Below, one piece after another: positions 413 through 61,779 of a stretch of DNA of 64,000 nucleotides. Origin of the DNA: Deltaproteobacteria bacterium (lineage in GTDB: Bacteria; Myxococcota; UBA727; JABDBI01); NCBI GenBank assembly GCA_016432245.1, contig CP066680.1, positions 106,446-170,445 of the forward strand, read 5' to 3'. Each line of letters opens with the position of its first letter. The first letter of the stretch is position 1. The notes under the pieces are model-generated. The model had not been told where the DNA came from, made no database searches, and worked only from the letters and a program-made list of their open reading frames with translations. The position numbers and the translations under genes were made by a program.

Positions 413-942
413 AAAATTAAATTTTTAGAAAAAGCATCAATAACACATTTGGTATATTTGTATATCATTGGAAGTTGTTTTTCTTCTAAAATACTAAAAT
501 TGGACAGTGCAAAATTTTTTATTGGATACTTATTTAATGTATCTTTTATTTCAACACGAATTCGGAAAAAGGCACTTTCAATATTTTTCAATCTATTATG
601 ACCAGCAGATCCTCCATTAAATCTCACATCTACTGATCCAAAATCTAAATTAATATCATCGTAAATAAGTAGAATATTAGAGTTAGGTATTCTAAAGAAA
701 ATAGAAGAACAATCAAGAGAAACTTCAGAACGATTCATATAAGTTTGTGGCTTTAAATATATGGTATTAGTATGTTTACTATAGAGTTTTAAGAAACCAG
801 GCTTATAATAGCTTAAACACACAGTGCCCAGAATACGAAATCCAATATTGTGACGATTACGAAAAGAATTAGATTTTGACTTTTTAAGACCAGCAATTAA
901 ATATGAACTATGAGGTGCTTGTACTTGTTGTTGTGTTAGCAT
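409..942 (-). CDS. pth: peptidyl-tRNA hydrolase
   Basis: 177 aa with LIAGL...RHNIGF, matching the Pth signature (LIVGLGNPG...TRHNxGF). The true start may be a non-ATG codon a few residues downstream of the listed ATG. Confidence 0.8.
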   Translation of the reverse strand: MLTQQQVQAPHSSYLIAGLKKSKSNSFRNRHNIGFRILGTVCLSYYKPGFLKLYSKHTNTIYLKPQTYMNRSEVSLDCSSIFFRIPNSNILLIYDDINLDFGSVDVRFNGGSAGHNRLKNIESAFFRIRVEIKDTLNKYPIKNFALSNFSILEEKQLPMIYKYTKCVIDAFSKNLIL

Positions 943-1516
943 CAGTTTTATTTTTTTTTGGTATTTTTATTGATAAAATGATAGTGTTTTTATTAATTTG
1001 AAGACTAGTGTTTAAAGGTAATTCTAAACACTTAGCAATTAATGGACCATTGTCTAAATTTGCAATATTTATATCGATTTGAGTTGGGACATGAAGCGGA
1101 GAAACCCAAAGTGGAATAAAATGAAAAAGTTGCTCAATTTTTTTTCCAAGAGCGATAATGATATTTTTTCCAGAAATATTTAAAGGAATTTTCATTTTGA
1201 TTTGTTTAGAAGGATCAATAGACATAAAATCAAGATGATATATAGAACGAGATACCGGATCGATTTGGATGTCTTTAATTATAGCCAATCGAGAAGATTG
1301 ATTGAAAACATTAAGCTGGAAAACTACATTTCGTTTCCATGGTGATTGAAGCAATTTCAACATTTCTTTTTTGTTTACAATTAATGGAATAGAATTAGTA
1401 TTCTTTTCGTATAAGATTGCAGGAATTTGGTTATTTAATAATAAGCGTCGAATTGAATTTTTTCCAAGAGATTTCCTTGGAAAAGCGTAAAGCGAAAAAT
1501 GTGAAGAACTTGTCAT
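908..1516 (-). CDS. rplY: 50S ribosomal protein L25 / general stress protein Ctc (long form)
   Basis: 202 aa. The N-terminus FPRKSLGKNSIRRLLLNNQIPAILYEK fits the L25 pattern RxxxGKGxxRRLRxxGxxPAVxY. Confidence 0.7.
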   Translation of the reverse strand: MTSSSHFSLYAFPRKSLGKNSIRRLLLNNQIPAILYEKNTNSIPLIVNKKEMLKLLQSPWKRNVVFQLNVFNQSSRLAIIKDIQIDPVSRSIYHLDFMSIDPSKQIKMKIPLNISGKNIIIALGKKIEQLFHFIPLWVSPLHVPTQIDINIANLDNGPLIAKCLELPLNTSLQINKNTIILSIKIPKKNKTDANTTTSTSTS

Positions 1517-10098: not shown

Positions 10099-11499
10099 TT
10101 GTTTATGAAAAATTTAAATATAAATATAAATAAACGCAGTATTGCTATGGTTTTTGGAGTTTTGGTTGGCTTTATCGTAGGTGGAGTGACTATATGTTTT
10201 AATTTGCTTTGTGTAGAGAATTTTGTGTCTCAAAATGCAAAGTCTAGACTTAAAGAGCAGCATATAATAATAGAGAATCCACCAAATGTTTCTAATGTTA
10301 TTACGCGCAAGGAAAATGTGAAGGCGATTGTTAACTTAAGTGCAGTAAGAAAATCTTTTGTAATTAATTATTTAAGAGGAGGAGGGCTAGATCTTAATAA
10401 AAATATAGATAAAAACATAAAGATAGAAAAAGGATTGATGCATGGCTTAAAGAAAAAAGAAGAAATGGATAAAATAGACATCGTAAATGATTATAAGTGC
10501 ATAGATACGCATGCTTTTAATGGCACCATTCCAGGAGGGCTTATTCGGGTACTAGAGGGGGATGATGTAGAAATTCGTTTTTCGAATACATATTCAAACA
10601 ATAATTCCTATAGTCTAATTGTTGATATGGAAAATGTGCCGCCAATGAAAGAGGTGCAGGGCAGACAGGAGATTTCTGCATTTGTTAAAGAAAATGAATC
10701 GACGTTGTTGAGATTTAAAGCTAAAAGGCCAGGGCTTTATATGTATCTAGGAGGAGGGTCTGCAGAGACGCTTATCACGCCTGGCAGGACAGGGCCAAAT
10801 ATGGCTACAGATATTAGTGGCGGCATGTATGGAATGATCTTTGTTCAGCCTAAGGACTATAAGCGAGCAGATAGGGAATTTTATCTTATGAGATCAGAAT
10901 TGTATATTGGGCAGGGATATTCTGCGCTTCAGACAAAAAGAAAAATAAGAACTTTAAAGGAGATTGAGCGATTATATTTATCGTATTGTGGTTTTAAAAA
11001 TAATGGAAAGGGAAGGATAGGTGAGGATTGGAAAAGGCGAAGCGAAGCAGTCTCTGATAGGTATGAAATCAATCAATACACTTACTATAAATTTAGTCAG
11101 TTCAGAGAGGTATTAGAAAAGCCAATGGATGTAGGTTTCAATGGAAAATTAAACCAATATGCAGACGCTTTTCCTTTAATGGTTGTAAGGGATGAGACAG
11201 TGCGATTTTTCATTGGCAATGTAGGGCCTAATAACCCAGCGCAATTTCTAGTAAATGGAGGGGACAAACCTTCTTTAGTGTCAATTTATGCAGAAAAAGG
11301 CGATAGGAAAAGAGTTGAGCATGGGATGTATCTAGCGCCAGGTAGTGCAGTTATAATAGATGTCAGCTTTGGGGAAATCGGAGATTATTTTATTCAAGAT
11401 AGGAAGGATTTACTAGGATTAAGCGGTGCAAGGATGAAGGTGCGTGTTTATAAGGACAGAGTGGATTTATTATATAACTTGTTAGGAGCGCTGAAGTAA
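10099..11499 (+). CDS. hypothetical membrane-anchored protein with a cupredoxin-like segment
   Basis: 466 aa. It has an N-terminal TM helix. The HAFNGTIPGGLIRVLEGDDVEIRFSN segment resembles multicopper-oxidase/cupredoxin folds, but no HxH or Cys/Met copper ligands are present. Its stop overlaps the next start as TAATG. Confidence 0.5.
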   Translation: MFMKNLNININKRSIAMVFGVLVGFIVGGVTICFNLLCVENFVSQNAKSRLKEQHIIIENPPNVSNVITRKENVKAIVNLSAVRKSFVINYLRGGGLDLNKNIDKNIKIEKGLMHGLKKKEEMDKIDIVNDYKCIDTHAFNGTIPGGLIRVLEGDDVEIRFSNTYSNNNSYSLIVDMENVPPMKEVQGRQEISAFVKENESTLLRFKAKRPGLYMYLGGGSAETLITPGRTGPNMATDISGGMYGMIFVQPKDYKRADREFYLMRSELYIGQGYSALQTKRKIRTLKEIERLYLSYCGFKNNGKGRIGEDWKRRSEAVSDRYEINQYTYYKFSQFREVLEKPMDVGFNGKLNQYADAFPLMVVRDETVRFFIGNVGPNNPAQFLVNGGDKPSLVSIYAEKGDRKRVEHGMYLAPGSAVIIDVSFGEIGDYFIQDRKDLLGLSGARMKVRVYKDRVDLLYNLLGALK

Positions 11500-12248: not shown

Positions 12249-13682
12249 ATGTATTTGTTTTCCTATTTAATTTTGATGTTTTGCAGTTATTGCACTACAG
12301 CAGGGTATTTAATATTGTTTGCCAGCATGCCACTTTGGTTAATTTTAGTAAAAATGCCCTGCGTGCACGGAGCGCAGATTGTTTTTGTTTTTAAATTTCT
12401 AGAGGTGTTTATCCTTACTCAGTGGCTTGGTGTAGGGATGAGTCTTTATGGAGAATTCTCGCTTATATTAGCGGTGATTATTTCCTTTTTATATTCATTA
12501 ATTGTTGCTTGTTATTTCTCATTTGGATATTTCTTTGGTAAAATTTTTTGCGATATTTTTCAATGGGATTTTCGTTTTATAATACCGGTGTTTATGAGTT
12601 TTTGCGAGTTTGTAAAAACATATGGTTATTTGTTATTTCCCATTCCTTGGGGGGATAGTGTGTATGTATTGAGCGGTGTTCCAGTTATGTTGCAACTGGT
12701 TTCAATATTTGGAGCTTTTGGGGTAGGTTTTTTTATATTTTTTATTGGTGCTAGTTTTGCATTTAAGCGCTATTGGCAATCATTGTTTTTTTTTTCTTTA
12801 TGGATTTTTTTTGGGGGAGTTAGTTTACAGAGTATTCATTGTTCATTGAAAGAATTAAATGTTGGTGTTTATCAGGCAAATATAGGGTGTAGTTCGTTGT
12901 CTAAGTTAAAGCAAGAGGAGGCATTTTTGAGGTATTATGGGCTGTATCAGGTGGCAAACAACTGCATAGCACAAGATTTTTATATATGGCCAGAGAATCC
13001 TTCTTTTTCAGCACATGATCAGCGAATGGTGGAGAGTTTTATGCAAAAAAATGTGCAAATGAATATAGTAACTATGCCTGTGATATGTGAGGACTATGGC
13101 TTTGTGAAGGTATTTAATTCGGCGCTTGTGTTTGTCGCAGGAAAAATTAAAATGCAAGTAAATAAAGAAAAGTTAATTCCATTTGGAGAGTATTCGCCAC
13201 GGTTTTTGGAGTTTATTCGCTTGGCAGATGAACCTTTTTGTTTTGGTAGTGGCGCGAAGATATATAGGGAAAAGGATTTGAATTTTGGAATTACTATATG
13301 TTTCGAGGGTCTTTTTCCAGAGCTTGGTGTTAGCTTGCGAAGAGCAGGGGCTGAGTTTTTAATAAATTCCACAAATGATGGTTGGTTTGGAGAAACACTT
13401 GGCCCTCATTTGCATTTTTCAGCATATCAAATAAGAGCTGTTGAGACGGCTGCATCTTATATAAGGGCTGCTAATTCTGGAATTTCTGCCTGGATAGATC
13501 CTCATGGATATGTGCATAGCGCCAGTAATCTGTATGAATCTTCATTTCTTCGTTTAAATGTTGTATCTTGTTTTATGGAGACAATGTATTCAATTATGGG
13601 GGATTTTATCTCTAGAATTTGTGTTTGTATATATATGGTTTCTGGCTTAATAGTGTTAAAAAGAGTAAAAGGAATAGTGTAG
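12249..13682 (+). CDS. lnt: apolipoprotein N-acyltransferase
   Basis: 477 aa. It has a polytopic N-terminus plus a C-terminal CN-hydrolase domain (…ICFEGLFPEL…NSTNDGWFG…). Confidence 0.75.
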   Translation: MYLFSYLILMFCSYCTTAGYLILFASMPLWLILVKMPCVHGAQIVFVFKFLEVFILTQWLGVGMSLYGEFSLILAVIISFLYSLIVACYFSFGYFFGKIFCDIFQWDFRFIIPVFMSFCEFVKTYGYLLFPIPWGDSVYVLSGVPVMLQLVSIFGAFGVGFFIFFIGASFAFKRYWQSLFFFSLWIFFGGVSLQSIHCSLKELNVGVYQANIGCSSLSKLKQEEAFLRYYGLYQVANNCIAQDFYIWPENPSFSAHDQRMVESFMQKNVQMNIVTMPVICEDYGFVKVFNSALVFVAGKIKMQVNKEKLIPFGEYSPRFLEFIRLADEPFCFGSGAKIYREKDLNFGITICFEGLFPELGVSLRRAGAEFLINSTNDGWFGETLGPHLHFSAYQIRAVETAASYIRAANSGISAWIDPHGYVHSASNLYESSFLRLNVVSCFMETMYSIMGDFISRICVCIYMVSGLIVLKRVKGIV

Positions 13683-13687
13683 AGAAA

Positions 13688-14791
13688 ATGTTAAAAGTGT
13701 GCGAATTGAAAAAAAAGATAAATACTTTATATCGGCTGCTTAGAATCTTGGAAAAAGAAAAAAGATTGGCGGAGATTAATAAGTTAATTGAACAGAAAGA
13801 TGAGTTAAAAAAAACAGAGAAAGACATAGACTGCGTGGCGCTATATAAGGAAAAGGAAGTAATTCAAAAGCATATTAGAGAGTATTTTAGCTTGGAGCAA
13901 AGAGTTCAAGACTTAATTCAATTAGAAAGTGAAATTAAAGATGATTATTCATTTTGTTTGGAGGTGGAAGAAGAAGCTGCTAAGCTCGAGGCTGATATAA
14001 AGGCAGTTGAATTGACAGAGCTATTTGTTCATTGCTATGATTCTTATAATGCAGTTTTAGTTTTAAATGCAGGGCAAGGAGGAATAGATGCGCAGGATTT
14101 TACAGAGATATTATTTCGTATGTATACGAAATATGCAGAGAAAAAAGGATATCGTGTTGATATTATAAATCAAATAAGAGGAGATGAGGCTGGGTTAAAA
14201 AGTATAAGTATGATTGTATCTGGCAAGTATGCGTATGGATTTTTAAAGGCAGAAGTAGGTGTCCATCGATTAGTTCGTATTTCTCCATTTGATTCTGGTG
14301 CCAGAAGGCACACGTCTTTCGTTTCAGTATGGCTTGCGCCAGAGGTGGAAGAAGAACAAGATATTCGTATAGATCTTGAAGATATTAAGATTGATACTTT
14401 TAAGTCTGGCGGTGCTGGTGGTCAGCATGTAAATAAAACTGAAAGTGCGGTTAGAATTTATCACATACCAACAGGGTTGTCAGTTGCTTGTCAAGTAGAT
14501 CGCAGTCAATTGCGAAATAGAGTAATGGCTATGAAATTATTAAAAGCAAAATTGTGGGATTTGAAAAATAAAGAAAGGGAAGTTGAAAAGAGATTGTTAG
14601 AAGGACAGAAAAAAGATGCTTCTTTTGGGTCTCAAATTCGAAATTATGTATTGACTCCTTATAGGGTAGTAAAAGATTTAAGAACTCAGTATGAGACGGG
14701 AAATGTTGATGCGGTTTTTGGGGGAGAGATACAGGCCTTTATAGATTTGTATTTAATTCAAGATAGGTTAAGCGAAATTAGTAAGTTGTAA
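13688..14791 (+). CDS. prfB: peptide chain release factor 2 (no programmed frameshift)
   Basis: Start reassigned to the ATG at 13688 (MLKVCELKKK...). It carries the RF2-specific SPF tripeptide (ISPFDSGARRHTSF) and the GGQ motif (SGGAGGQHVNKTESAVRI). The reading frame is continuous. Confidence 0.85.
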   Translation: MLKVCELKKKINTLYRLLRILEKEKRLAEINKLIEQKDELKKTEKDIDCVALYKEKEVIQKHIREYFSLEQRVQDLIQLESEIKDDYSFCLEVEEEAAKLEADIKAVELTELFVHCYDSYNAVLVLNAGQGGIDAQDFTEILFRMYTKYAEKKGYRVDIINQIRGDEAGLKSISMIVSGKYAYGFLKAEVGVHRLVRISPFDSGARRHTSFVSVWLAPEVEEEQDIRIDLEDIKIDTFKSGGAGGQHVNKTESAVRIYHIPTGLSVACQVDRSQLRNRVMAMKLLKAKLWDLKNKEREVEKRLLEGQKKDASFGSQIRNYVLTPYRVVKDLRTQYETGNVDAVFGGEIQAFIDLYLIQDRLSEISKL

Positions 14792-15207: not shown

Positions 15208-15454
15208 AAAAGGGCAGGGTTCAACAAGAAATGGAAGGGATTCGAAGCCTAAGTATCTAGGTGTAAAGAGGGCAGATGGAGAGTTTGTAAGAGCAGGGAG
15301 TATTTTAGTTAGGCAAAGGGGTACTAAAATTAAGCCAGGCATTCACGTAGGGTGCGGAAAAGATCATACTCTGTTTGCAGAGATTAGTGGAGTTGTAAAG
15401 TATCAACGTGGTGCTTTAAATCGGGTTTTTGTGGACATTTTCAATTCTTGCTAG
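15197..15454 (+). CDS. rpmA: 50S ribosomal protein L27
   Basis: Start reassigned to the ATG at 15197; [24 protein letters not shown] is the L27 signature. Confidence 0.9.
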
Positions 15455-16493
15455 AAAAGGAAATACTTTGAAGAGATGGATAGGGGAGGAATATTATTGT
15501 TGGTATGGGAAAAGGGTTGCTTATATAGTGACTCTAAACGATATTAGACCTTCCAAAAGAGTATTTGAAGAATTTGGAATAAAATTAATTATCAGAACGA
15601 TTGAGTATTTGCTTAGTAAAGGGGCGTCTCTTATTCTGGTGCTGGAAAAATCTTGTATTATCAGTAAAGTGCAAAAAAGGGAACAGGATATTTTTTTTCA
15701 GCGTTTTTTTTATTGTCTTGGCAGAGTATTCGGTTATCGGCAATCAGGAAAATGGCTTATTGAAGAGGTTATATCAATTAATCGATTGATGCCTGGGCGT
15801 CTTCTTGTTATAAATACTTTTAGAAATGATTTAAAATTTATATTTTCCAAGACCCAAATTGATGTATTTGTATTTGAAGACTGGGCTACCTACAAATTAA
15901 TAAGGTCTAGTAGCAACTTTCAAAAGTATTTTTTTGGATTTTTACATTATAGCAAATCAAAATTTTTTCTTTTAAACTTTAGAAAGGAGAAAACTATATC
16001 TTTAATAGGAGCAGGATGCGATTTAAAGAAAAAGCAAATCTTAAAAAATCTTTTAGAGAGTAAAGTGTTATTAACTAGTGCAAATTGGTTAACTTGTATA
16101 AAGCGTGTGGACCAGGAGAATGAATATAGGCAGAGAATATTGATATCCATAGGTGATTATGAATTTATATATTCTGTTTGGCAAAAAATTTTGGAATTTC
16201 CAGTTTTAGTTTTTTCTCCTTGTGATTTTGTAAAAGTGCAAGAAATAATGACGAATGCTTTAATTTCCATTGTAGGAAAAGCTCCAAGTAATCTCAGTGC
16301 AGTAGTTGAAATAGGGCCAAGAACTATAATCTCATATAGGGAGATTGTGAGAGAATTTCAGTATATTTTATGGCATGATAGGCTTTATAAATTTAAAGAA
16401 AATTTCATTTCTTTGCATTGTGATGTTTTTTCGATTATATTTAAAAATAAAAGTGTATATCCAGTATATAGCTTTAATGAAAAAGTTAAGTGA
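15429..16493 (+). CDS. hypothetical protein (354 aa), unknown function
   Basis: Long uninterrupted ORF in AT-rich DNA with no recognisable motif. The real start may be internal, since the first 26 nt overlap rpmA. Confidence 0.4.
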
Positions 16494-16578: not shown

Positions 16579-17298
16579 ATGCAATTGTTTTCAAAGATAA
16601 CTAATGAAATTCCTAGAATAGCATTATTATGTCTTTTTATAGTATATCTTTGGTTGATCTTTCTCTTTTGGTTTTGGGGTTCACCATGGAACCTTGGTGT
16701 TGGATACAGGCCGATACAGCCGCAGGTATTTAGTCATAGTTTACATGCAGGAGAATTATCGATAAATTGTTATTATTGCCATAGCTATGCTTGTAAAGCT
16801 GAGATGGCAGGGTTGCCATCATTTTCCGTGTGTAAAGAATGTCATGATCTTTTAGTCCATAGTAATCATAACATTTGGAAGTCTTCTATAATGCAAGATT
16901 CAGATTTGAATAATATTTTTAATCTTTCAAAGAAAGGTTATGATTATAAAAATAGGTATTTTGAGATTTTAGGGCGTGGCTTTACAAAAATACAACTAAA
17001 AGAAAGCATTTTAAATGGATGGGGTTTCTTTTTGGATCACGGGCATTGGGTAAAAGTACACAAATTACCAGAATATGTTTATTTTAATCACAGTGCTCAT
17101 ATTAGAACAGGGATAGGATGTACAAATTGCCACGGGGAAATAAAAGAGATGGAAGAAGCGCAAACTGTACAACCACTTAGCATGAGATGGTGTATAGATT
17201 GTCATAGAAAACCAGTAATTTATCAAGAAGGTAGAAAATTTTTTATTAATGAAAGCGCAAATCCACCTATAACAGATTGTTATGGTTGTCATCGATGA
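16579..17298 (+). CDS. actA: Alternative Complex III subunit ActA (pentaheme cytochrome c)
   Basis: 239 aa. It has an N-terminal TM helix and five CxxCH motifs (CYYCH, CKECH, CTNCH, CIDCH, CYGCH). Confidence 0.8.
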   Translation: MQLFSKITNEIPRIALLCLFIVYLWLIFLFWFWGSPWNLGVGYRPIQPQVFSHSLHAGELSINCYYCHSYACKAEMAGLPSFSVCKECHDLLVHSNHNIWKSSIMQDSDLNNIFNLSKKGYDYKNRYFEILGRGFTKIQLKESILNGWGFFLDHGHWVKVHKLPEYVYFNHSAHIRTGIGCTNCHGEIKEMEEAQTVQPLSMRWCIDCHRKPVIYQEGRKFFINESANPPITDCYGCHR

Positions 17299-17315
17299 TG
17301 AAAAGGAATTAAAAA

Positions 17316-20300
17316 ATGACAGATAAAAACAGTAGTTTTGGGAATATTAGAAGGCGTACAATGTTGAAATTAATGGGATTAACATTTGCTCTTGTTAGTT
17401 TTAATATGGGGTGTCGACGCCGACAACCCATTAGAATGTTTCCTCGTAAAGAAATTGAAGGGACAGTAGAGGGGTGGACTCCAGGAGAATCCCTTTTTTT
17501 TAAGACAGCATATCCAGGAGAATGGGGGGCAATAGGGCTATCTGTGGAAACGCATGAGGGGAGACCGACAAAAATAGAGGGAAACAAAGTGCATTTTTCA
17601 AGCATGGGAACTGTGGGAATTCATGAACAGGCATCTTTACTTGAATTGTATGATGAAAAGAGATCAAAGGTCCCGATTAAAAAGATAAAAGGTGTTAGCG
17701 AGAGAGCAAAAACAACATGGACAGAGTGGATGCGGTTTCAAGAGGAGCATTTTTCTTGCTTAAAAGACGTGAAGGGAGAAGGACTTTGTTTTTTATTTGG
17801 ACCAGAAGATTCGATAACAAAAGGTAGGTTAATTAAACTTTTAGCAAGAGAATACCCGAAAGCATTGTTTTTTAAGCATGACCCATTATATCTTTTTAAT
17901 GAAGAGCAGGGGTTAAACCTTGTATATGGCAAAGAAAAATTAAGACTTATTTACGATTTAAGAAAAGCAAAAATAATTTTAAGCATACAAGCGGATCCAT
18001 TTATGCAGGCTCCACTGTCCTTAAAAAACGCTTATGATTATTCATTATTACGAAAGGCGCAGCTAAAAGAAGGAAGGCATCTTAGTCGGTTGTATTGTGT
18101 TGAGGCAAAGTATTCTGTAACGGCTTCAATAGCAGATCATCGAATATCTTTGTCAATAGCAGATAGCATAAGTTTTTTAAAGATACTTTCCTGGGAAATA
18201 TTTCCTGAATTAAAAAATGAGAGAGATCAACTAACAGAATTAGACGCATATAGGGATTTTATAAGTGGACTATCTCGGGATCTGAAGGAAAACATGAAAG
18301 AATCTCTTATTATTATAGGAGAATTAATGCCGCCAGAGGCACATGCAATGGTAGCGGTGTTAAATGAAAAACTAGGTGGGAGAGGACATACATATAGAAT
18401 ACTCGATGCAGGTGAGGCTTCTTTAGCAGAAAAGGTTAATGCGGAAGAAGTGATTGTGGACAAAAATTGTAAAAAGCTAGAAGAATCTATAAAAAAAGGA
18501 AGGGTAAAAACCTTAGTTGTTGTCAATTCTAATCCAATTTATTTAACCTCTAAAAAGACTAACTTGCAAGGTTTGTTTCAGCAGGTTAATACGATTATCT
18601 GTGCTGGAATTTACGAAGATGAGACTGCAGCCTTGTCAGATTGGCATTTGCCACTTTCTCATTATCTTGAAGATTGGGGAGATACGAGAGATTATAGTGG
18701 CCTAGTATTAATTAGACAGCCAGTTTTACAAGAGTCACTGTATGATACGCGATCAGAATATGAATTTTTATATAAAATATTAGAAGCAGGAAATAATAAA
18801 GCATTTTTCCCACATGGTTCGGAAAAAGCACTAGATTTAGTGTTAGAAACGTATTTGCAGGAGAATACAAGTGATTCATTTGATATCGCATTGATTAGGG
18901 GGTTTTGGGGCAGAGAATTTCCAGTGTATTTGGAAAAAATGAAAAATAGCAATTTTTTTCTCAAAAGTTTAGATAATAAAAAGTCGGTAGAAGTTATTTT
19001 AGAATGGGATTATAAAGTTTTAGATGGTCGTTTTTCTAATATAAATTGGCTTCAAGAGTTAGAAGATCCGATAACTAAAGTTACATGGGGGAATGTTGCT
19101 TTAATTAGTAAAAGCTTGGCTGTGGAGTACGGGATTGAAAATATAAGAAGCCTCGTCTCTACGCGGGTAGATGTTGTATCTATTGTATCAGAGGGAAATA
19201 ATATTGAGATACCTGCACTCATAATGCCTGGTGTAGCACAGAATAGTATTATAGTTCCTATCGGCTATGGAAGAGGAGCAGCAGACTCTAGCTTGGTCAT
19301 AGGAGAGAATGCGTATAAGATTATGTCAAGTACAGGTGGCCGTGTTCTTTATGATATTCAATTATTAAAAACGGGAAGGGTAGAAGAATTAGCTATTACA
19401 GACAAGTATTTTGCAGAAAATGCAGATAAGATTAAGGAAGATGATGTTTTGATCTTAAAAAATTATAAGCCAGTTTTATGGGAAGATTTTGATAATGTAA
19501 AGAATAAAGAGCATACAAGCAAGCATAGTAAGTCTTTATATAACAAATGGCCTTATGAAGGAGGCAATAAATGGGGTATGGTCATAGATTTAAATTCATG
19601 TATAGGGTGTCAGTCTTGTGTCATTTCTTGTAGAGCTGAAAACAATATTCCAATTGTTGGAAAAGATCAGATTAAAGCTAGAAGAGATATGAGTTGGTTA
19701 AGAGTTGATCGTTACTTTGTAGGAGATGTAAAGAATCCTTTAAGTTTTTCGCAACCAGTTCCATGCATGCATTGCGAGCAGGCTCCTTGTGAACCAAGTT
19801 GTCCAACTTCAGCAGTTGTTCATACGCCAGAAGGGTTAAACACTATGATCTATAATAGGTGTAGTGGCACGAGATTCTGTGCGGCAAGTTGTCCATATAA
19901 AGTTAGAAAGTTTAATTATTTTGATTATTCACAAAGTGCAGATGTTTTTCCCGATATTGGAGAGGAAAAAGTACAGTCATTGAGTAAAATGCAGAGGAAT
20001 CCAGAAGTGAGCGTTAGATATAGAGGAGTTATGGAGAAATGTACATATTGTGTTCAGAGAATTGTTAAAGGAAAGAATCGAGCGACACAAATGGGGTTTG
20101 ATTCGAATTTTATGCAAGATGAGACGCTTAAAATTGAACCGGCATGTGCTCAGGTATGTCCGACAAGGGCGATTTCATTTGGAAACCTAAATGACTTGAA
20201 ATCTGAAGTGGCATTAGATAAGGGTGATCAGCGCAATTATGAGCCATTAATTGGAAAAAATTTAAGCCCTAGAACTACTTATTTATATCGCGTGTTGAAT

Positions 20301-20339
20301 AGAAGTCATTTAGTGAAGGAGATTAAAAACGATGGTTGA
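17316..20339 (+). CDS. actB: Alternative Complex III subunit ActB (fused molybdopterin-oxidoreductase-like and 4Fe-4S ferredoxin domains)
   Basis: 1007 aa. It has a twin-arginine signal ([12 protein letters not shown]). The C-terminal region contains four Cys clusters ([46 protein letters not shown]). Confidence 0.8.
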
Positions 20340-21729
20340 AAAAAAAATTCATATAGGAGATGTTGTATTTCCTAATATTCCAGGTGAAAGAGATGAATTT
20401 ATCAGGGGAGGGGTTTCTTATGGTGATGTAACAAATTTAGTGTGTAGAATGCCAGAGTTAAAATTGGGAGAAGAGCCAAAATGGTGGAAAATAGCATTTG
20501 GGATTTCCATATTAGGTGTTTTTCTTTTTTTCTCTTCTGTTTTTTGCGTTATTTGGTTTGGCATTGGAATGTGGGGAAACAATAATCCTGTTTTTTGGGC
20601 GTGGGATATTGTTAACTTCGTTTTTTGGGTTGGGATAGGGCACGCTGGTACTTTAATATCAGCTATTTTGTTCTTATTTAGACAAAAATGGAGAACTTCG
20701 ATTAATAGATACGCAGAAGCAATGACAATTTTTGCAGTAATATGTGCAGCTTGTTTTCCAGTGTTTCATATGGGAAGAGTTTGGACAGCTCATTTTTTAG
20801 CACCAATACCTAATCAGATGGGCATGTGGCCGAATTTTCGATCTCCTTTGTTATGGGATGTATTTGCTGTTAGTACATATTTTACAATCTCATTGCTTTT
20901 TTGGTATGTTGGGTTAATTCCAGATTTAGCAACATTAAGAGATAGGGCCAAAGGGACTTTGGGAAAGAAAATATATGGGTTCTTTTCTCTTGGATGGAGA
21001 GGATCGGTTAAGGATTGGTATATCTATGAGAAGGCATATTTATTTTTAGCAGCATTATCAACACCATTAGTGTTATCGGTTCATAGTGTGGTTTCGTTTG
21101 ACTTTGCAACTTCACAGCTTTCAGGATGGCATACTACGATTTTTCCACCATATTTTGTTGCAGGTGCTATCCTATCTGGGTTTGCAATGGTGCAGACGTT
21201 AATTATACCAGCACGTATTTGGCTCGATCTAAAAAATCTAATAACAATTCAGCATATTGAAAATATGAACAAAGTTATATTATTAACTTCTAATATGGTA
21301 GGATATGCGTATGGAATAGAATTTTTCATTGCTTGGTATAGCAAGGATCTTGAAGAATTTCAACTTTTTATACATAGAGCCACAGGCTGGTATGCATGGG
21401 CATATTGGACAATGGTTATTTGCAATGTTGTTATTCCTCAATTGTTTTGGATGCGTAGAATCCGCACAAGTATATTTCTAACTTTTATAATGTCTATTGC
21501 AATAAATATAGGAATGTGGTTTGAAAGATTTGTTATTATTGTAACATCTTTGAGTCAGGGAAATGTTCCTTCTTCATGGAGTTATTATAGTCCAAGAATA
21601 TGGGATGTTTTTTTGTTTATAGGTTCTTTTGGACTGTTTTTCTTTTTATTTTTGCTTTTCATTCGATTTTTACCAGTGGTAGCAATGGCAGAGGTAAAGG
21701 GGGTAATGAAGGGCGGTCACTGCAAATAG
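20332..21729 (+). CDS. actC: Alternative Complex III subunit ActC (NrfD/PsrC-like polytopic membrane quinol-interacting subunit)
   Basis: 465 aa, very hydrophobic with ~10 predicted helices. It overlaps the actB stop by 8 nt. Confidence 0.75.
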
Positions 21730-21743
21730 GAAAGGGAGTATTT

Positions 21744-22292
21744 ATGAATAATATATATGGAATGTTAGCTGAATATGAAGATCAGGGAACCATTTTTGAG
21801 GGATTAACAAAAATTCGATCTTTAGGTTATAAGAAGATAGATATATTTAGTCCATTTCCTATTCATGGGATGGAAGAAATGTTCATGGGTAAAAGCTTAA
21901 AGCGACAATCTCGTAAATTATCTAACACTGTATTTGGATTTGGGATGGTAGGGTTTTTAGCTATTTTTGGTTTAATTACTTGGGTATCTGTTTTTAATTA
22001 TCCTTTAAACATCGGAGGTCGACCTTTGATGAGTTTTCCAGCTTTTATTCCACCAATGTTTGAAATTACAATTTTATTTAGTGGGATAACTACAGTGATT
22101 ACGATGCTTTATTTAAATGGGTTACCTAAGTGGCATAATCCATTATTTAATTCTGTTAAGTTTAAGAGAGTCACAGATGACCGTTTTTTCTTATTAATAT
22201 ATGCAACAGATTGTCGTTTTAATAGTACACAAACACAGATTGATTTAATGAAAAGTAATGCCTTAAGCGTTGAGGTAATATTAAAGGATTGA
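21744..22292 (+). CDS. actD: Alternative Complex III subunit ActD
   Basis: Start reassigned to the ATG at 21744 (MNNIYGMLAEYEDQGTIFEGLTKIRSLGYKKIDIFSPFPIHGMEE). It is an ActD/DUF3341-like N-terminus followed by TM helices. Confidence 0.65.
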   Translation: MNNIYGMLAEYEDQGTIFEGLTKIRSLGYKKIDIFSPFPIHGMEEMFMGKSLKRQSRKLSNTVFGFGMVGFLAIFGLITWVSVFNYPLNIGGRPLMSFPAFIPPMFEITILFSGITTVITMLYLNGLPKWHNPLFNSVKFKRVTDDRFFLLIYATDCRFNSTQTQIDLMKSNALSVEVILKD

Positions 22293-24529
22293 AAATGAAT
22301 ACAATTGAATTTTTTATAAAAAAATTTCTAATATTTTTTTTTCTAATATTTTTTTTTCTAGTAATTTTTTCTGGAGTTTTTGGCAGGGGTTTCATTTCAA
22401 GACATGCTCCAATTTTACTTCAACAGAATATGTTTATACAGGAGAAAGTTGTACCGTACACTCAGGTCTATAACAAACATTTTTTGAAAAATTCTCATTT
22501 AAACAGAAATTTTCCGATAGAATTATTCGAAGATGAGATTCCGATTAGTGATGAAAATTGGCTTTCTACAGGACTTGTAACATATAAGAATAATTGTCAA
22601 ATTTGTCATGGAAAAGCGGGTAGTGGTTTTCCTTTGAATTTTGATCTTCAAATCACACCACCACCGCTCTTAGACCTTCAATCGCTAAAGGAAGTTGATA
22701 TATTTAAAAAGATTAAGCATCATAAGTATGGAGTAATGCCAAGCTTTAAGAATCAATTACAAGCTAGAGAGGCATGGGCTGTTGCATATTACATAAAAAA
22801 TGAGCATTTGCAAAAGGAGATATCATCAATATTAAATGAATTAAAAACTAAGGGATTATTTTATAATGATTTGTTACAGACGCCGAATAATTATTTTGAA
22901 AAGTTATTTTTTTTCAATTTGCTTTATGATTGCGTTTTTTACAATGAATATTTCACAGACTCTTTTTTATTAAATGTTTCGAATTTAGCTTATGCAATAT
23001 TGGATCCAAATTTTGAGTTATCTTTTGAATCTTTTTATGAGATGTTGTCACAGGAAGAAATTACAGATGAAGATTTAAATTTTATTCTGTTAAGGATAAA
23101 AGAAAAATTAATAAGGGAGCGACAAATATATGATATGTTTTCAAATCATGTGGGAAATCCTTATTTTGGAAAAGTAAATAACCTATTTATAACTACAGAG
23201 TTTAATAGAGAAATTTATAATAATTTATTGACAAAGTTGTTGTTTTTGCGTTTTTCTGAAGAGCATAATAATGCAAAGGTTGATAAAATTACTATGTGTA
23301 CAATTAAATCTGAAAATCTTGGAAATAAGCTATATGGTTCGGAAAATCTTTTAAATAAATACCTTCATTCTAGATTGAAAAGTAAGGGAGATAAATTATT
23401 TGTAGCTTTAAATCAATCGTTATTTTTTTTAAATAATAAGGTAGCAGAATTAGAAAACTCTATAAATGGATTGAAAAGAGAATTAGAAGATGATAAATAT
23501 ATATTAGTAGAAAAATGCCCGTTAATTTATAAAGATTTTTTTATAAACATTTATAATTCACAATTAAAAGATTTAACTTCAAAAATAAATAATCAAAACG
23601 ATGATTCGAAAGCAAGGAAGATAATGTTAGAGATAGATAAAGTAAAAGAAACTATCGAAACACGGAAAACACAGATTGAAACCGGCCAAGTATATGACAT
23701 GTTTTATAACGTAGAAATGTCGTATGAAGATTTTGGCCTTATTTTATTGAAAAAGATTATCAGTTATGAGACTTTAGTTAAGAAATACAACATAAGTCTT
23801 GCCAACAAAAAGAACTTTTTTGATTTGGATTTTCTCAATGTAGGTTTGATTCATGATATTGATAAGAAGAATTTAGATTTAATAATTGAAAAGAGACAGG
23901 ATGTTGAAATGATCTCCTTAAATAGGGAAATGCTTGATTATCAATTATTTATTCAAGAATTACAGCAAGAATTTGAAGAAATATTAAGAGACATAGATGA
24001 TTTGAAAGGCATTTTAGACAAAATTCGTACTAAAGGAGCGAAGATTCATACAATAAACACCTCATTTTTGCAAAAAGACTATATGCAATTATATATGTTA
24101 AAAAATAAATTAAATGATCTTCAGTGCTTATTGATATATAAAAAAGATTTAAATGAAGTAGAAATGTTAGGATTGCAAGGGAGTTTTTTTGCTTTTGATT
24201 GGTATCTTGAGGACATTAAACCTAGTATATTAGATCAAAATAAGGAAGAAAAAATGTTAATGCGTAAATATAGAGAATTACTAGAAAAGTTAAAGTATAA
24301 GAAAATATTATTAGGGATATCAATTCAGGAAAGAGAAGTGCGAGCGAAATATTCCCAAGATAGTATGAGTAAATTAATTCAATTATGTGCAATGCTATTA
24401 ACAGAATTGAAGAAGGATCAAGAGAAAGTACGAAGCTATCTTGAATACATATCTGAAAGTGATGTTAAAATTACATATGATTTCATGGGACATTTAACAA
24501 AGTCATGCATGATAAAGGCGGGATTCTAA
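22289..24529 (+). CDS. actE: Alternative Complex III subunit ActE (monoheme cytochrome c) fused to a ~560-aa coiled-coil-like C-terminal extension
   Basis: 746-aa uninterrupted ORF. It has an N-terminal TM helix, a single CQICHGK heme motif and a distal Met segment (KYGVMPSF) within the first ~180 aa. The remaining ~560 aa are K/E/L/N-rich heptad-like sequence with no stop codons. It overlaps actD as ATGA, and actF begins 2 nt after its stop. Confidence 0.7.
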   Translation: MKMNTIEFFIKKFLIFFFLIFFFLVIFSGVFGRGFISRHAPILLQQNMFIQEKVVPYTQVYNKHFLKNSHLNRNFPIELFEDEIPISDENWLSTGLVTYKNNCQICHGKAGSGFPLNFDLQITPPPLLDLQSLKEVDIFKKIKHHKYGVMPSFKNQLQAREAWAVAYYIKNEHLQKEISSILNELKTKGLFYNDLLQTPNNYFEKLFFFNLLYDCVFYNEYFTDSFLLNVSNLAYAILDPNFELSFESFYEMLSQEEITDEDLNFILLRIKEKLIRERQIYDMFSNHVGNPYFGKVNNLFITTEFNREIYNNLLTKLLFLRFSEEHNNAKVDKITMCTIKSENLGNKLYGSENLLNKYLHSRLKSKGDKLFVALNQSLFFLNNKVAELENSINGLKRELEDDKYILVEKCPLIYKDFFINIYNSQLKDLTSKINNQNDDSKARKIMLEIDKVKETIETRKTQIETGQVYDMFYNVEMSYEDFGLILLKKIISYETLVKKYNISLANKKNFFDLDFLNVGLIHDIDKKNLDLIIEKRQDVEMISLNREMLDYQLFIQELQQEFEEILRDIDDLKGILDKIRTKGAKIHTINTSFLQKDYMQLYMLKNKLNDLQCLLIYKKDLNEVEMLGLQGSFFAFDWYLEDIKPSILDQNKEEKMLMRKYRELLEKLKYKKILLGISIQEREVRAKYSQDSMSKLIQLCAMLLTELKKDQEKVRSYLEYISESDVKITYDFMGHLTKSCMIKAGF

Positions 24530-24530
24530 T

Positions 24531-25787
24531 ATGATAATGGCTTTATATCGTTTATATCCACCGTCAGAAGCGGAGATGAGAATTCGCCTTCGTCGGCATG
24601 GGCGTACACGGCGACCACAACCATATGAAAATTTGTTTCAAGTTACACCAACTACGGTCAAGAGGGATTCATTTTTAATGCTTTTAAGTATGTTGTTCTT
24701 AACCTATTGGATTATATGTTGGATATCCATACCAACAAGGGCGTCCTTTGGCTATCTTTTTGCATTTATATCTATGTTGACATGTGTACTTGGATCTTCT
24801 TTTTTTGTTTTAATTCAACATGCAGTAAGAGCAGGATGGTCCGTAATAGCACGGCGAAGTGCTGAATTTATCATGGAAACTGTATCTTTGTTTGCGATTT
24901 TATTTTTACTTGTTGTTATTAACATGAAGGACTTATATATATGGACAGATCCATCATGTAATTTTGAATTGGCGTCAATTGGGATGTTTTATTTGAATAA
25001 TGTTTTCTGGATTATAAGAGGAATTGGGTACTTTTTAGTTTGGATTATTTCTTCAAAATATATTTGCCAAAAATCATTCAATCAAGATCAGGCAAAAAAT
25101 GATTCATTATCTATAACAATGCAAAAAGCAAGTTATATTTTCTTGTTATTATATGCATATACGACATCTTTTGCCTCCTTTGATTGGGTGATGTCTTTAC
25201 AGCCACATTGGTTTTCATCAATTTTTGGTATTTATTTTTTTGCAACTTGTTTTTTAACAGGGTTGGCAAGTATTTGCTTTATATTTTTATTAACAAGGGT
25301 TCCTTCAAATACAAATCATATGTATGATTTTGGAAAATTGTTATTTGGATTTACTATATTTTGGACATATATAGCATTTAGTCAATTTATGCTAATATGG
25401 TATAGTGATCTTCCGGAAGAAATTGGTTTTTATACTACCAGGTCTAACACGGAAGAGTGGTGGAGAATGTCTTTTTATTTAATATTTTTTAATTTTATAG
25501 TTCCATTTTTCTTTTTAATAAGGAAAGATAACAAATGGCATTATGGACCAATCTTTTTTATGTCAATGTGGACTTTGTTTTTTCAATTTATACACATTTA
25601 TTGGTTAATAATGCCAATCTTAGGTGAGGAAAAATGGTGGTATTCCCTAGATTGTGATTTTTCTGCAATGATGATTGTTATGGCCTTATTTATAAGGAAA
25701 ATTATTCGATCATGTAGAAAGTACGAATTATATCCTAAAAATGATCCATTTTTAGAAGAATCCTTGAAATGTGAGAAAATTCATTAA
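24531..25787 (+). CDS. actF: Alternative Complex III subunit ActF (second NrfD-like membrane subunit)
   Basis: 418 aa polytopic membrane protein, paralogous in character to ActC, in the canonical actABCDEF order. Confidence 0.65.
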   Translation: MIMALYRLYPPSEAEMRIRLRRHGRTRRPQPYENLFQVTPTTVKRDSFLMLLSMLFLTYWIICWISIPTRASFGYLFAFISMLTCVLGSSFFVLIQHAVRAGWSVIARRSAEFIMETVSLFAILFLLVVINMKDLYIWTDPSCNFELASIGMFYLNNVFWIIRGIGYFLVWIISSKYICQKSFNQDQAKNDSLSITMQKASYIFLLLYAYTTSFASFDWVMSLQPHWFSSIFGIYFFATCFLTGLASICFIFLLTRVPSNTNHMYDFGKLLFGFTIFWTYIAFSQFMLIWYSDLPEEIGFYTTRSNTEEWWRMSFYLIFFNFIVPFFFLIRKDNKWHYGPIFFMSMWTLFFQFIHIYWLIMPILGEEKWWYSLDCDFSAMMIVMALFIRKIIRSCRKYELYPKNDPFLEESLKCEKIH

Positions 25788-25792
25788 AAAAG

Positions 25793-26860
25793 ATGCTTGA
25801 GCTTGAAATCCTTTATACTTTTTTAGTTACTTTAATCGTATTTATCACTGTATTTTTATTTGTTTCAATTTCTTCATATATAGTGGCTTACTATTTGTTA
25901 AAATCATTTATCGAGTGGTTTTGTGAATATATGCACTCAAATGTCGAGGATTTTGATAAAAGTATTTTATTAGCAATATTTGGCCCTGTTCGTATGGGGT
26001 TAGCTTTTTTAGTGGTGTTCTTATTAGCGTACTGTATAAGTATGTTGCATATTTATTTGCCTTTATTACAAGAAATTGCAAGTCTTTTATTCTTTTTTGT
26101 AACAACATGGTTTCTTTTCGATTTGATAAATTTAGGATTTTCATGGCTAAATCAATTTTATAGTAAAAGAGGGCAAATCGAAATTGTTTTGCTGATTCCA
26201 TTATGGCGTCGCATAGTAAAAGGAGTTATTATAATATTTGTTATTTTATTTTTTTTGCAAAATAGTGGAGTTCAGATAACCGCTTTACTAGCAGGATTGG
26301 GTGTTGGAGGCATTGCCATTGCACTAGGAGCTCAAAAGGCCATAGGAGATTTTATAGGTGGATTAATATTGGTTTTTGATAGGCCAATTAAAATTGGTGA
26401 TGAGTGCAGGTTTTATGATAAACATGGATATATAGAATCTATAGGGCTTAGAAGTGTAAGAGTAAGAACGCCTGAAAAGACCTTATTGATTATTCCAAAT
26501 TCAGATTTTTCCCAGGGAAGGATTGAAAATGTTTCAGAAAGAGATAGAATATTGTTTAAAAGTTTAATTTCTGTACATCAAAATACTACCTTAAAAAAAA
26601 TTCAATGTTTGCTTTTAGAGTTTGAGCAGCTTTTATACAATTCTTCATACACATGTAAAGAGAAAATAAGGGTAACGTTAATTGGATTTAGTAAAAATTC
26701 TTTTGATATAGAGATTCAAGCATATGTATTAACAAATAATTATACAGAATTTTTATCAATGCAAGAAAATTTATTAATGGATTTAATGAATAAAATAAAG
26801 AAATTGAAAATCAATTTAGCTATTCCAATTGTGGAAAATATAGAATCCTTATCTAGTTGA
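25793..26860 (+). CDS. MscS-family small-conductance mechanosensitive channel
   Basis: 355 aa. It has N-terminal TM helices, then the conserved MscS pore/beta-domain region (GLGVGGIAIALGAQKAIGDFIGGLILVFDRPIKIGD). It starts 5 nt after actF. Confidence 0.7.
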   Translation: MLELEILYTFLVTLIVFITVFLFVSISSYIVAYYLLKSFIEWFCEYMHSNVEDFDKSILLAIFGPVRMGLAFLVVFLLAYCISMLHIYLPLLQEIASLLFFFVTTWFLFDLINLGFSWLNQFYSKRGQIEIVLLIPLWRRIVKGVIIIFVILFFLQNSGVQITALLAGLGVGGIAIALGAQKAIGDFIGGLILVFDRPIKIGDECRFYDKHGYIESIGLRSVRVRTPEKTLLIIPNSDFSQGRIENVSERDRILFKSLISVHQNTTLKKIQCLLLEFEQLLYNSSYTCKEKIRVTLIGFSKNSFDIEIQAYVLTNNYTEFLSMQENLLMDLMNKIKKLKINLAIPIVENIESLSS

Positions 26861-26865
26861 AAGTG

Positions 26866-27834
26866 CTATTTTATACATTTTTTTAAAGATGGTTTTTGAA
26901 TTGCAGCTAAGTGGCAATTATAAGTTTTACAAAATATGTGATATTTGAGATTTGGGCTATAAAAATATAAAAATGTAGATTGTATCGGATATAAAATTGC
27001 ATATATTGATGACACACTGGAGGAAGAGATAGGCCCAGGTGGTATTCCATAATTGACATAAGTATTATATTCATTAAATTGTTTAGTTTGAAATTTTAAA
27101 GGCATGATATTCTTTTGAAATATATAGGAGCTGCTTGAATCCATTTGTAGTTTCATTTTTATTTTTAATCTATTAAAAATAATTCCAGCAATTACTTTTT
27201 TCTCATACTGCAACGAAGATTCTTTTTCGACAATGGAAGCAAGTGTAAGTAACGTGTGTAAGTTTATTTTAAGCTGAATAATCATTTTTCTTTTTAAATC
27301 AGGGAAGATATTAGACAGTATTTTATTATTAAATTTGGTTAACATGGCGTTTAGAGATTGATTGCATGGGATACGATAAGTAGCAGGAGAAAAATAGCCT
27401 TCTAATCCTCCCTTTATAGAAAAGTTAGCATTTAGAGTTTTGTAGAAAGTAATGTCATTTAAGGTATATTCAATATTTTTAGGCGAAATAGATTGGGAAT
27501 TAATGAGGGATTCTAGTATTGAATCTAAAGAGGCATTTTCATCTATGCGTATCTTGTATGTTTTTTTAATATTATGGGAAGCTATATAGATTGATTTAAT
27601 GACGGATATATTTTTACATATTGGCAGAGATGCAGGGAGATGTGTTGTTAGAAATAAAAAATCTTTATATATATTCCAGAAAATTTTATGCGATTTTTCA
27701 AAAGATGAAATATTAATTTCTCGACATTTTTTTAAATATATTTGTTTATTAATAAATTTCCAATAGGAGAAAGAGCATATTAAAAAGAGCCCGATAATGG
27801 GAGTTAATAAACGAAGGAAATTAAATATGTTCAT
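26866..27834 (-). CDS. mltG: endolytic murein transglycosylase MltG (YceG family)
   Basis: 322 aa. It has an N-terminal TM anchor and the YceG signature YNTYVNYGIPPGPISS (YNTYxxxGLPPGPI). Confidence 0.75.
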   Translation of the reverse strand: MNIFNFLRLLTPIIGLFLICSFSYWKFINKQIYLKKCREINISSFEKSHKIFWNIYKDFLFLTTHLPASLPICKNISVIKSIYIASHNIKKTYKIRIDENASLDSILESLINSQSISPKNIEYTLNDITFYKTLNANFSIKGGLEGYFSPATYRIPCNQSLNAMLTKFNNKILSNIFPDLKRKMIIQLKINLHTLLTLASIVEKESSLQYEKKVIAGIIFNRLKIKMKLQMDSSSSYIFQKNIMPLKFQTKQFNEYNTYVNYGIPPGPISSSSVSSIYAILYPIQSTFLYFYSPNLKYHIFCKTYNCHLAAIQKPSLKKCIK

Positions 27835-37927: not shown

Positions 37928-38947
37928 TTATTTTTCAAGTATGTATAAAAATTCCTTATTGTAAGAGTGCGAACTATGGCCAACGGGAATACCGAATTTG
38001 TTGTGGATTCCAATTTTTGAGCCTATATATCTTTTGTACTTAAAGGACAGGATTGATATTAGTTTTCCATGTTTTGATAAAAATTGTTTTAATTCGTTAG
38101 AATTGATAAATCCTTCATCGCTAAAAGATAAGATGATATTTTTAGATTGAATTATATTTAAAAGATGAGAGAGGTTTGAGAGAAACAAGTTTTTATAATT
38201 AAAGATGCTTTTTCTAACTTTACAGTCTATTCTTTTACATGCGATTCCATAGTGTGCCGGCTTATCCCAGAGGGCTAGGGATTCCCATATATGATAGTTA
38301 GCAAGGTAATTATGTTGGTTATATGGAGGATCTATATAGGCCACATCGGCAATGATTTTTTTTGCAGCGGACAGCACGTCAAGATTAAGGGCAAGGCTTT
38401 TTCCATAAGTGCTTTGATAAAGGAGAGTTGGTACTTTGAGTGTTATTGGTTTATATGCTCTTGGTGGAAATTTTTTTAAGTAAGCCATTTGCATTCCGCA
38501 AGTTGAATCAACTTTATCTGCGGCTTCTATTAATGACACTAAAAGAATAGCCGTTAATGCAGGAGGCAGTGAGTGGTGTAGAATCTCTTCTCTTATAGAA
38601 TCAATTTTTTCACCATTTGACTTATGAAAAAAATTAGATTTAACACAGAATGTGCTTGTGAAGTATCCAGAAGAGCCGTGAAGAGTGTTTAAATAGGCAA
38701 TCCATAAGGAGGTATCTTTGATTAGTTCATATGAAAAATCGGTTTCGACATAGCATTTTGCTAACATATAGGCGAAAAAATTGTGGTCATTAGAGAAAAC
38801 TTGGTACCCTTTTTTCTTTAGAGCATAGCCGACACAGGACGAGCCTGAAAATAAATCCATAACAGAAGTTGCATTTGGAAAAAAATCTGCTATAGTATTT
38901 AATATGAAAGGTGTCATTTTTTTTTTGGATCCTAAATATTTAATCAT
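37928..38947 (-). CDS. N6-adenine DNA methyltransferase, Dam/D12 class (alpha-type); orphan
   Basis: 339 aa. It has the N-terminal YLGSKKKM (cf. Dam KWAGGK), an FxGxG-like SAM site (MDLFSGSSCVGYAL) and the catalytic DPPY (VAYIDPPYNQHNY) in the C-terminal half. No adjacent endonuclease-like ORF was found. Confidence 0.75.
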   Translation of the reverse strand: MIKYLGSKKKMTPFILNTIADFFPNATSVMDLFSGSSCVGYALKKKGYQVFSNDHNFFAYMLAKCYVETDFSYELIKDTSLWIAYLNTLHGSSGYFTSTFCVKSNFFHKSNGEKIDSIREEILHHSLPPALTAILLVSLIEAADKVDSTCGMQMAYLKKFPPRAYKPITLKVPTLLYQSTYGKSLALNLDVLSAAKKIIADVAYIDPPYNQHNYLANYHIWESLALWDKPAHYGIACKRIDCKVRKSIFNYKNLFLSNLSHLLNIIQSKNIILSFSDEGFINSNELKQFLSKHGKLISILSFKYKRYIGSKIGIHNKFGIPVGHSSHSYNKEFLYILEK

Positions 38948-50180: not shown

Positions 50181-50191
50181 AATGAAAACAT

Positions 50192-52009: not shown

Positions 52010-52017
52010 TTACTTAT

Positions 52018-56490: not shown

Positions 56491-58732
<2,242 letters not shown>

Positions 58733-58768
58733 TTGACAATATACTAAACATTCGCTAAAAAGAAAGCA

Positions 58769-59682: not shown

Positions 59683-59690
59683 GGAATAAT

Positions 59691-61777: not shown

Positions 61778-61779
61778 AT

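Follow-up and report, generated by a model that had tools for sequence, protein, structure and literature searches.

The alternative complex III (ACIII) of Rhodothermus marinus (structure 6F0K) contains the subunits ActA to ActF; ActA is pentahaem, ActE is monohaem, and ActB has the cysteines to hold four Fe-S clusters. That of Flavobacterium johnsoniae was solved as a supercomplex with the aa3 oxidase (6BTM), and its subunits are anchored by N-terminal triacylated cysteines (PMC8286838). Gene clusters coding for ACIII are frequently followed by oxidase clusters (PMC5928083), as happens in R. marinus, where the genes of the caa3 oxidase come after the act genes. Here we describe the act cluster found at positions 16579-26860 of a 64,000-nucleotide stretch of contig CP066680.1 (hereafter the window). 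The contig belongs to a metagenome-assembled genome (MAG) that carries the NCBI label "MAG: Deltaproteobacteria bacterium" (proteins QQG35088-QQG35093 for this locus). The cluster resembles both described systems, with the same six subunits as R. marinus and the subunit set and order of F. johnsoniae, but it is followed by mscS, a gene for a mechanosensitive channel, instead of oxidase genes. Most likely it is an intact ACIII operon, inherited vertically, in which the junction with mscS is a relic of gene-order history and the real peculiarity is an ActE with a long orphan extension. The locus is a further example of a well-known complex, and its novelty is limited to the separation from the oxidase genes and to the aberrant ActE.

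The alternative complex III operon

The act genes and mscS are seven ORFs, all on the plus strand, with actA to actF at 16579-25787 and intergenic distances, in order from actA through mscS, of +17, -8, +14, +2, +1 and +5 nt. The initial annotation had described a complete actABCDEF cluster, canonical in order and tightly coupled, and the ORF map reproduced its coordinates exactly, with all genes on one strand and an operon-like spacing. Its description of the genome as streamlined and AT-rich was also fair, as the window has a GC content of 31.5%, is ~94% coding and shows a median intergenic gap of 11 nt.

ActA (16579-17298, 239 aa) has an N-terminal membrane helix and is predicted to be a pentahaem cytochrome c: CXXCH motifs at residues 64, 85, 181, 205 and 234 correspond to the five haems already claimed for it. 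Among solved structures it matched only ActA chains of ACIII (6f0k_A at 6e-37, 6btm_A, 6lod_A and 8k9e_A). The F. johnsoniae ActA is longer (444 aa) and has an extra domain. ActB (17316-20339, 1007 aa) is a fusion of the molybdopterin-like (B1) and Fe-S (B2) subunits, with Pfam Molybdopterin plus Fer4 domains; its B1 part would be cofactor-less. Its N-terminus carries the twin-arginine motif RRRTMLKL followed by Cys33, and the Fe-S domain has 15 Cys at residues 762-948, the count needed for 3x[4Fe-4S] + 1x[3Fe-4S], in agreement with the Tat signal and the four FeS Cys clusters of the earlier description. The top structure matches were ACIII ActB chains (6f0k, 8k9e, 6lod and 6btm, with E-values from 3e-161 to 8e-100), while PsrB and NrfC matched at 1e-17 only. 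The relatives of this ActB have the same Tat motif plus a G-C lipobox. They also share a conserved segment of ~25-30 aa (KYWRSIQYREWT..EF..GDSEF) before the twin-arginine motif that is absent from the window (17316-17420), where ActB begins just 11 residues ahead of the RRR motif.

The two NrfD-like membrane subunits were recognized as such from the beginning, and their structure matches bear this out. ActC (20332-21729), the putative quinol-binding subunit, matched ActC chains of ACIII only (6f0k_C at 1e-181) and has a Pfam NrfD domain (1.8e-22); it is also the best conserved subunit, with 66-70% identity to relatives. ActF (24531-25787) matched ActF chains only (6f0k_F at 6e-60, 6btm_F at 7e-44, 8k9e_F and 6lod_F). 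It gave no Pfam match, and it is found in NCBI as a hypothetical protein (HYS16_00665). Between them lies actD (21744-22292), coding for a two-helix membrane subunit. Although the ORF as listed begins at 21600, its residues 53-225 are those covered by the match to PF11821 (1.6e-52; 178 bits, cut-off 25.7; model positions 1-169 of 170), which makes the ATG at 21744 the probable start. An alternative genetic code with TGA read as Trp was considered and rejected, as the TGA of actD falls exactly at the end of the Pfam model and a second TGA comes two codons later. Homologues of ActG or ActH were not detected here.

6F0K was the best structure match for ActA, ActB, ActC, ActE and ActF, and the corresponding chains of 6BTM matched as well. 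With the best or only structure matches of the subunits, the Pfam ActD, the haem counts (five in ActA, one in ActE), the 15 Fe-S cysteines and the Tat motif, the cluster is, as judged from its sequence, a genuine and intact operon for ACIII, a menaquinol/quinol:cytochrome c oxidoreductase; profile and structure searches thus favour the original ACIII call over Psr or Nrf. The Qrc complex of sulfate reducers has comparable modules (a multihaem cytochrome c, molybdopterin-like, Fe-S and NrfD-like proteins), and we take it to consist of QrcABCD, without ActD, ActE or ActF and with B and C as separate proteins. That the cluster codes for Qrc or another complex of the superfamily (Psr, Nrf or DsrMKJOP-like) is hardly conceivable: the top NCBIfam matches are indeed named QrcC, QrcB, QrcA, DsrO and DsrP, but all fall far below their cut-offs (QrcC, 166 bits against 400), and against such an identity stand the presence of both ACIII-specific ActD and ActF, the fusion of B1 and B2 in a single protein, the exclusive matches of ActC to its ACIII counterparts, the canonical A-B-C-D-E-F order, and E-values that even for the weakest ACIII ActB chain are more than 80 orders of magnitude better than for PsrB and NrfC.

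For comparison we surveyed ACIII loci in GTDB contigs (one genome per species) using a profile search with an ActF alignment; a search with ActB alone found no relative. Myxococcota or Myxococcales is the label carried by the nearest Act relatives. The closest ActB sequences have 43-44% identity, and their loci include L001, L002 and L003 (three Logan assemblies); related clusters are found in the New Zealand groundwater MAGs nzgw261 (L010) and nzgw262 (L006), and in L007. All these Myxococcota-labelled clusters have, like the window, actABCDEF with an mscS downstream on the same strand.

ActE and its C-terminal extension

The gene actE was correctly listed in the initial annotation, which nonetheless overlooked that it does not code for a routine subunit of ~190 aa: the whole ORF (22295-24529), starting at an ATG preceded by an AGGA ribosome-binding motif, has 744 aa and includes an orphan extension. 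The ActE of R. marinus has ~209 aa and a lipobox Cys (PMC5928083), that of F. johnsoniae has 162 aa, those of the nearest relatives have 184-202 aa, and those of the Myxococcota-labelled clusters listed above have 166-189 aa, also with a lipobox. From the CXXCH motif to the C-terminus, the protein of the window has 644 aa; in 62 other ACIII loci the median of this distance is 95.5 aa and the largest value 223.

The conserved part (22295-22849) contains a signal or anchor helix and a monohaem cytochrome c domain. In it we could recognize an N-terminal hydrophobic helix, the motif RG...P-I...NM..Q..K..PY, CQICH at residue 101 and a Met-Pro ligand region, and it matched 6f0k_E (9e-5), 6btm_E (7.5e-3) and Pfam Cytochrome_CBB3 (1.6e-10). 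Alignment with the relatives stops near residue 185. ActE is the least conserved of the Act subunits (23-27% identity to relatives), and its lipobox, which reads LGC, LAC or SGC in the relatives, has become GVF, with no Cys before residue 101, in contrast to the triacylated cysteine anchors of F. johnsoniae. Without this cysteine, the ActE of the window would be either held by an uncleaved helix or released as a soluble form. The lipoprotein pathway itself is retained: the window includes lnt (12249-13682), and the cysteine that follows the Tat motif of ActB is still there. The lipobox cysteine of ActE is a typical trait of ACIII, not a strictly defining one.

The extension (22850-24529, ~560 aa) is predicted to be all-helical. 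Leu, Lys, Glu, Ile and Asn abound in it, Pro makes up 0.9% and Gly 3%, and no membrane segment was found. With ActE exported, this would place the extension in the periplasm. It appears to be an orphan: the only homologue among 1.84 billion cluster representatives and in a 5.8-billion word-index search was the sequence itself, and there was no Pfam, NCBIfam or significant solved-structure match. Self-BLAST, tblastn against the window and BLASTP against the ORFs of the fetched loci gave nothing that would make it a repeat, a paralogue or a remnant of cox genes. A continuous coiled coil was also discarded, as there is no significant global heptad periodicity and only a local patch appears near residues 539-595. 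The AlphaFold2 model of ActE, made from the single sequence, consisted of helices only, with a mean pLDDT of 37, and was unusable.

Our best guess is that the extension might be a structural or docking appendage of ACIII maintained by selection. It could act as a built-in scaffold or tether, making up for the loss of the lipid anchor and of accessory subunits, or docking ACIII to an acceptor whose genes are no longer adjacent. ActE has been proposed as the electron exit to caa3, and in R. marinus there is unassigned periplasmic density above it (PMC5928083). Such an appendage could be tolerated or recruited on a subunit under relaxed or unclear constraint, as ActE is. We suggest, tentatively, that the lineage has evolved a functional module in the periplasm, a scaffold or docking domain. 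Weighing against it is that the extension has been seen in a single MAG, with no homologue anywhere searched, which would also fit a non-functional origin: translation running past a lost actE stop into an insertion of AT-rich DNA, fusion with an orphan gene next to it, or a mistake in the assembly. The GC content of the extension, the lowest in the operon (25.8%), the very low AlphaFold2 confidence and the poor conservation of ActE point in the same direction, as does the deletion of actE in F. johnsoniae, which leaves electron transfer to aa3 intact with slower growth (PMC8552683). We consider this origin unlikely all the same. The frame at 22814-24529 runs for 571 codons free of internal stops, where the base composition would give ~10% of stop codons (P ~5e-27); the other five frames contain 27-75 stops, and no shuffle out of 1000 gave an open run of more than 130 codons. 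Moreover, the frame continues that of the haem domain and closes 1 nt short of the actF ATG, its GC3 equals that of the neighbouring genes, no in-frame ATG near the junction with the haem domain could begin a separate gene, and a genome that is 94% coding would rarely retain 1.7 kb of useless sequence.

As a side observation, 22 of the 84 loci with an ActF ORF in the survey (L009, L011, L013, L016 and L078 among them) showed, by a simple script, no separate CXXCH ORF ending just upstream, and some of the stop-to-stop ActF ORFs were very long (e.g. L078, 8519-11152). In these other lineages ActE may be fused to ActF or lost, or the ORFs may run on in high-GC DNA.

The mscS junction and the inheritance of the operon

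The last gene of the cluster, mscS (25793-26860, 355 aa), codes for a predicted small-conductance mechanosensitive channel that resembles YnaI. Its family was correctly identified at the outset, and the 5-nt gap between the stop of actF at 25787 and the ATG of mscS at 25793 can be read directly from the sequence. The protein has the beta-domain and the pore-lining TM3 helix of the family (PF00924, 7e-19; PF21088, 4e-7) with extra N-terminal helices, and the closest solved structure is YnaI of Escherichia coli, a paralogue of MscS (5Y4O, 6URT and others; 343 aa), matched at ~1e-20 to 4e-20 over residues 100-345, a likeness that holds at family level. The E. coli gene is presumably not linked to respiratory genes. 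In the window mscS converges with mltG/yceG on the minus strand; the two stops are 5 nt apart (26860-26866), with no terminator-like hairpin between them.

Co-transcription of mscS with actF is very probable from their spacing. The promoter and terminator scans did no better than on shuffled sequence: 65 promoter-like sites were found where 70 were expected, and none of the nine terminator-like sites fell at a gene boundary.

The initial annotation considered the association of mscS with ACIII unusual. This was true for the broad survey, since among the 62 GTDB loci with at least 6 kb downstream of actF only three (L010, L006 and L007) had a same-strand mscS, whereas in 53 of them COX1 came less than 6 kb after actF and on its strand, i.e. 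the classical ACIII-caa3 supercluster. In the clade of the window, however, the association is conserved and gene-order history explains it. Orthologous MscS proteins, 39-41% identical, are found downstream of the act or act-cox genes in L001-L003, L010, L006 and L007. The AT-rich relatives L001, L002 and L003 (33-34% GC) have the order actABCDEF-mscS-dnaG-rpoD(-ddl), and L010, nearly identical to L003 in a tree of ActC plus ActF, has the same direct junction between actF and mscS. L006 and L007 (45-48% GC), on the other hand, keep oxidase genes between actF and mscS, in the order actABCDEF-small ORF-sco1-COX2-COX1-COX3-COX4 (coxB-coxA-coxC-coxD)-mscS, all on one strand and with gaps of 10 and 23 nt between COX4 and mscS. 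The outgroup loci L005, L019 and L020 have act-cox without mscS. The window has no oxidase genes directly after actF, the trait of the supercluster, and no homologue of SCO1 or COX1-4 was found within its 64 kb.

The frequencies of cox and mscS after actF in the survey, together with the gene order of L006 and L007, indicate that the junction most likely arose by loss of the oxidase block from this site. Two steps would be enough: mscS would have come to sit behind act-cox in the ancestor of the clade, and a sco1-cox block of ~4.7 kb would later have been lost or moved from the site in the AT-rich lineage, leaving actF beside mscS. The adjacency would then be a clade-specific inherited gene order and not a new system joining respiration and a channel.

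A functional role for the linkage seems improbable to us, slightly more so than the non-functional origin of the ActE extension. The channel would in that case be an accessory of the respiratory cluster, with gating or ion release coupled to respiration, co-regulated with ACIII (and with caa3 in the relatives) and its linkage kept by selection. The linkage does persist in four different downstream contexts (convergent mltG in the window, dnaG in L001, L003 and L010, other minus-strand genes in L006 and L007), and the spacing upstream of mscS is operon-like throughout (5-69 nt). But it is limited to one narrow clade, the three loci of the survey already mentioned, and tight spacing is weak evidence in a genome with so short a median gap. 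In addition, in the genome of L008, the sister of L006, the closest homologue of the window's MscS (P0124, 45% identical) is encoded on a contig apart from the operon, where its neighbours are unrelated genes and neither act nor cox is close by, which shows that the link can be broken and argues against an accessory channel. This homologue came up in a word-index search with MscS that missed the known orthologues of 39-41% identity. To our knowledge no link between MscS or YnaI and ACIII has been described, which also counts against that role. Downstream of COX4 in L008, where mscS is missing, the ORF at 12605-13714 on the minus strand has by eye the look of ankyrin repeats (...GNGPLWHAAEQNNQKIVKMLLEKGANLN...). 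Ankyrin repeats are frequent in host-associated bacteria.

Regarding the origin of the whole operon, the sequence data favour vertical inheritance over a recent acquisition, on the grounds of shared flanking synteny, equal base composition and similar divergence of Act and housekeeping proteins. The block dnaG-rpoD-ddl, identified by Pfam, is found at 48444-53058 on the plus strand of the window, outside the operon and 21.5 kb downstream of mscS, whereas it adjoins mscS in the AT-rich relatives L001, L003 and L010. Upstream, pth-rplY is on the opposite strand both in the window (409-1516) and in L003 (5740-6880). The act genes have the same GC and GC3 as the housekeeping genes, in a genome close in composition to the AT-rich relatives (32-34% GC with L010 included). 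Identities to these relatives are 59-61% for RpoD, 37-41% for DnaG, Ddl, Pth and L25, and 34-70% for the Act subunits other than ActE.

Two observations do not fit well with this reading. The neighbour-joining tree of ActC plus ActF puts the window as a very long branch outside the clade that shares mscS, and identities to the AT-rich and to the GC-richer relatives are equal (~40-45% for most subunits). We tentatively attribute the odd position in the tree to long-branch attraction, and place the window within the mscS-sharing clade by synteny and MscS similarity. The failure to group with the AT-rich relatives in that tree would also suit a recent horizontal transfer of the operon and mscS into a reduced genome, a scenario that we find very unlikely in view of the GC and GC3 of the act genes, the pth-rplY and dnaG-rpoD-ddl flanks common to relatives with the same operon, and the comparable divergence of Act and housekeeping proteins.

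Respiratory role and genome setting

By analogy with the solved ACIII structures, quinol would be oxidised at ActC and the electrons would pass through the Fe-S clusters of ActB and the five haems of ActA to the haem of ActE, and from there to a c-type acceptor or an oxidase, while ActC and ActF would translocate ions. The window contains no bc1 genes. A DsbD/CcdA-type membrane domain fused to a thioredoxin (43972-45051, minus strand), which could supply reductant for cytochrome c maturation, and the F1Fo ATP synthase genes at 56494-62661 are consistent with respiration. Against this, no terminal oxidase, soluble cytochrome c or core gene of the ccs/ccm systems (CcsA/CcsB, Ccm) was found in the 64 kb. 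With no oxidase in the window, aerobic or microaerobic respiration is what we infer from the gene content.

One candidate acceptor in the window was a 466-aa protein related to NirK/AniA (10099-11499, plus strand; TIGR02376 at 1.6e-20, below the cut-off, and PDB 5tb7 at 2.6e-19). It was rejected because the aligned His and Cys that bind copper are replaced: at the type-1 and type-2 ligands PHNVDFH has become SYSLIVDMEN and HC has become LG. In this compact genome it seems to be a retained cupredoxin that has degenerated or been repurposed. Our search of the literature on reduced deltaproteobacterial symbionts with ACIII gave nothing useful.

The rest of the window consists almost entirely of core housekeeping genes. 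Universal genes are dense, with two aminoacyl-tRNA synthetases, infB, nusA, topA, gyrB, dnaG, rpoD, dnaX and a large part of the ATP synthase operon, besides nine tRNA genes. Extrapolated from this density and the high coding fraction, the genome may be far smaller than 1 Mb and perhaps not much larger than its 311,843-bp contig; the QQG-type protein accessions might likewise indicate a non-WGS and perhaps complete record. The GC skew stays above zero in all 2-kb bins (0.05-0.40), its cumulative curve climbs monotonically and the majority of the genes are on the plus strand, so the window as a whole appears to belong to a single leading-strand replichore, with an unusually strong skew. Upstream of the operon, 85 nt before actA and following rplU-rpmA, there is a gene for a 354-aa protein that resembles phosphoglycerate kinase but is extremely divergent (15429-16493, plus strand; Pfam PGK at 1.3e-3 and PDB 1php at 6.7e-6), in a slot where we take obg to be a common occupant. 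Further downstream, a D12-class (Dam-like) N6-adenine DNA methyltransferase is found at 37928-38947 on the minus strand, beside tRNA-His, tRNA-Arg and a class A penicillin-binding protein.

The retention of a 10-kb quinol-oxidising complex in such a compact, fast-evolving lineage points to a respiratory and probably oxygen-linked lifestyle, and the disappearance of the usual adjacent caa3 genes raises the question of which acceptor remains in the genome. The mscS junction is a cautionary case, in which an odd operon partnership dissolves on comparison with relatives. The extension of ActE is the sole unprecedented element of the locus. Provided that it is genuine and expressed, no larger elaboration would be known of this ACIII subunit, the one whose role is debated. 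Should the extension also be functional, a very small genome (perhaps ~0.3-0.7 Mb) would have remodelled its respiratory complex and not merely kept it.

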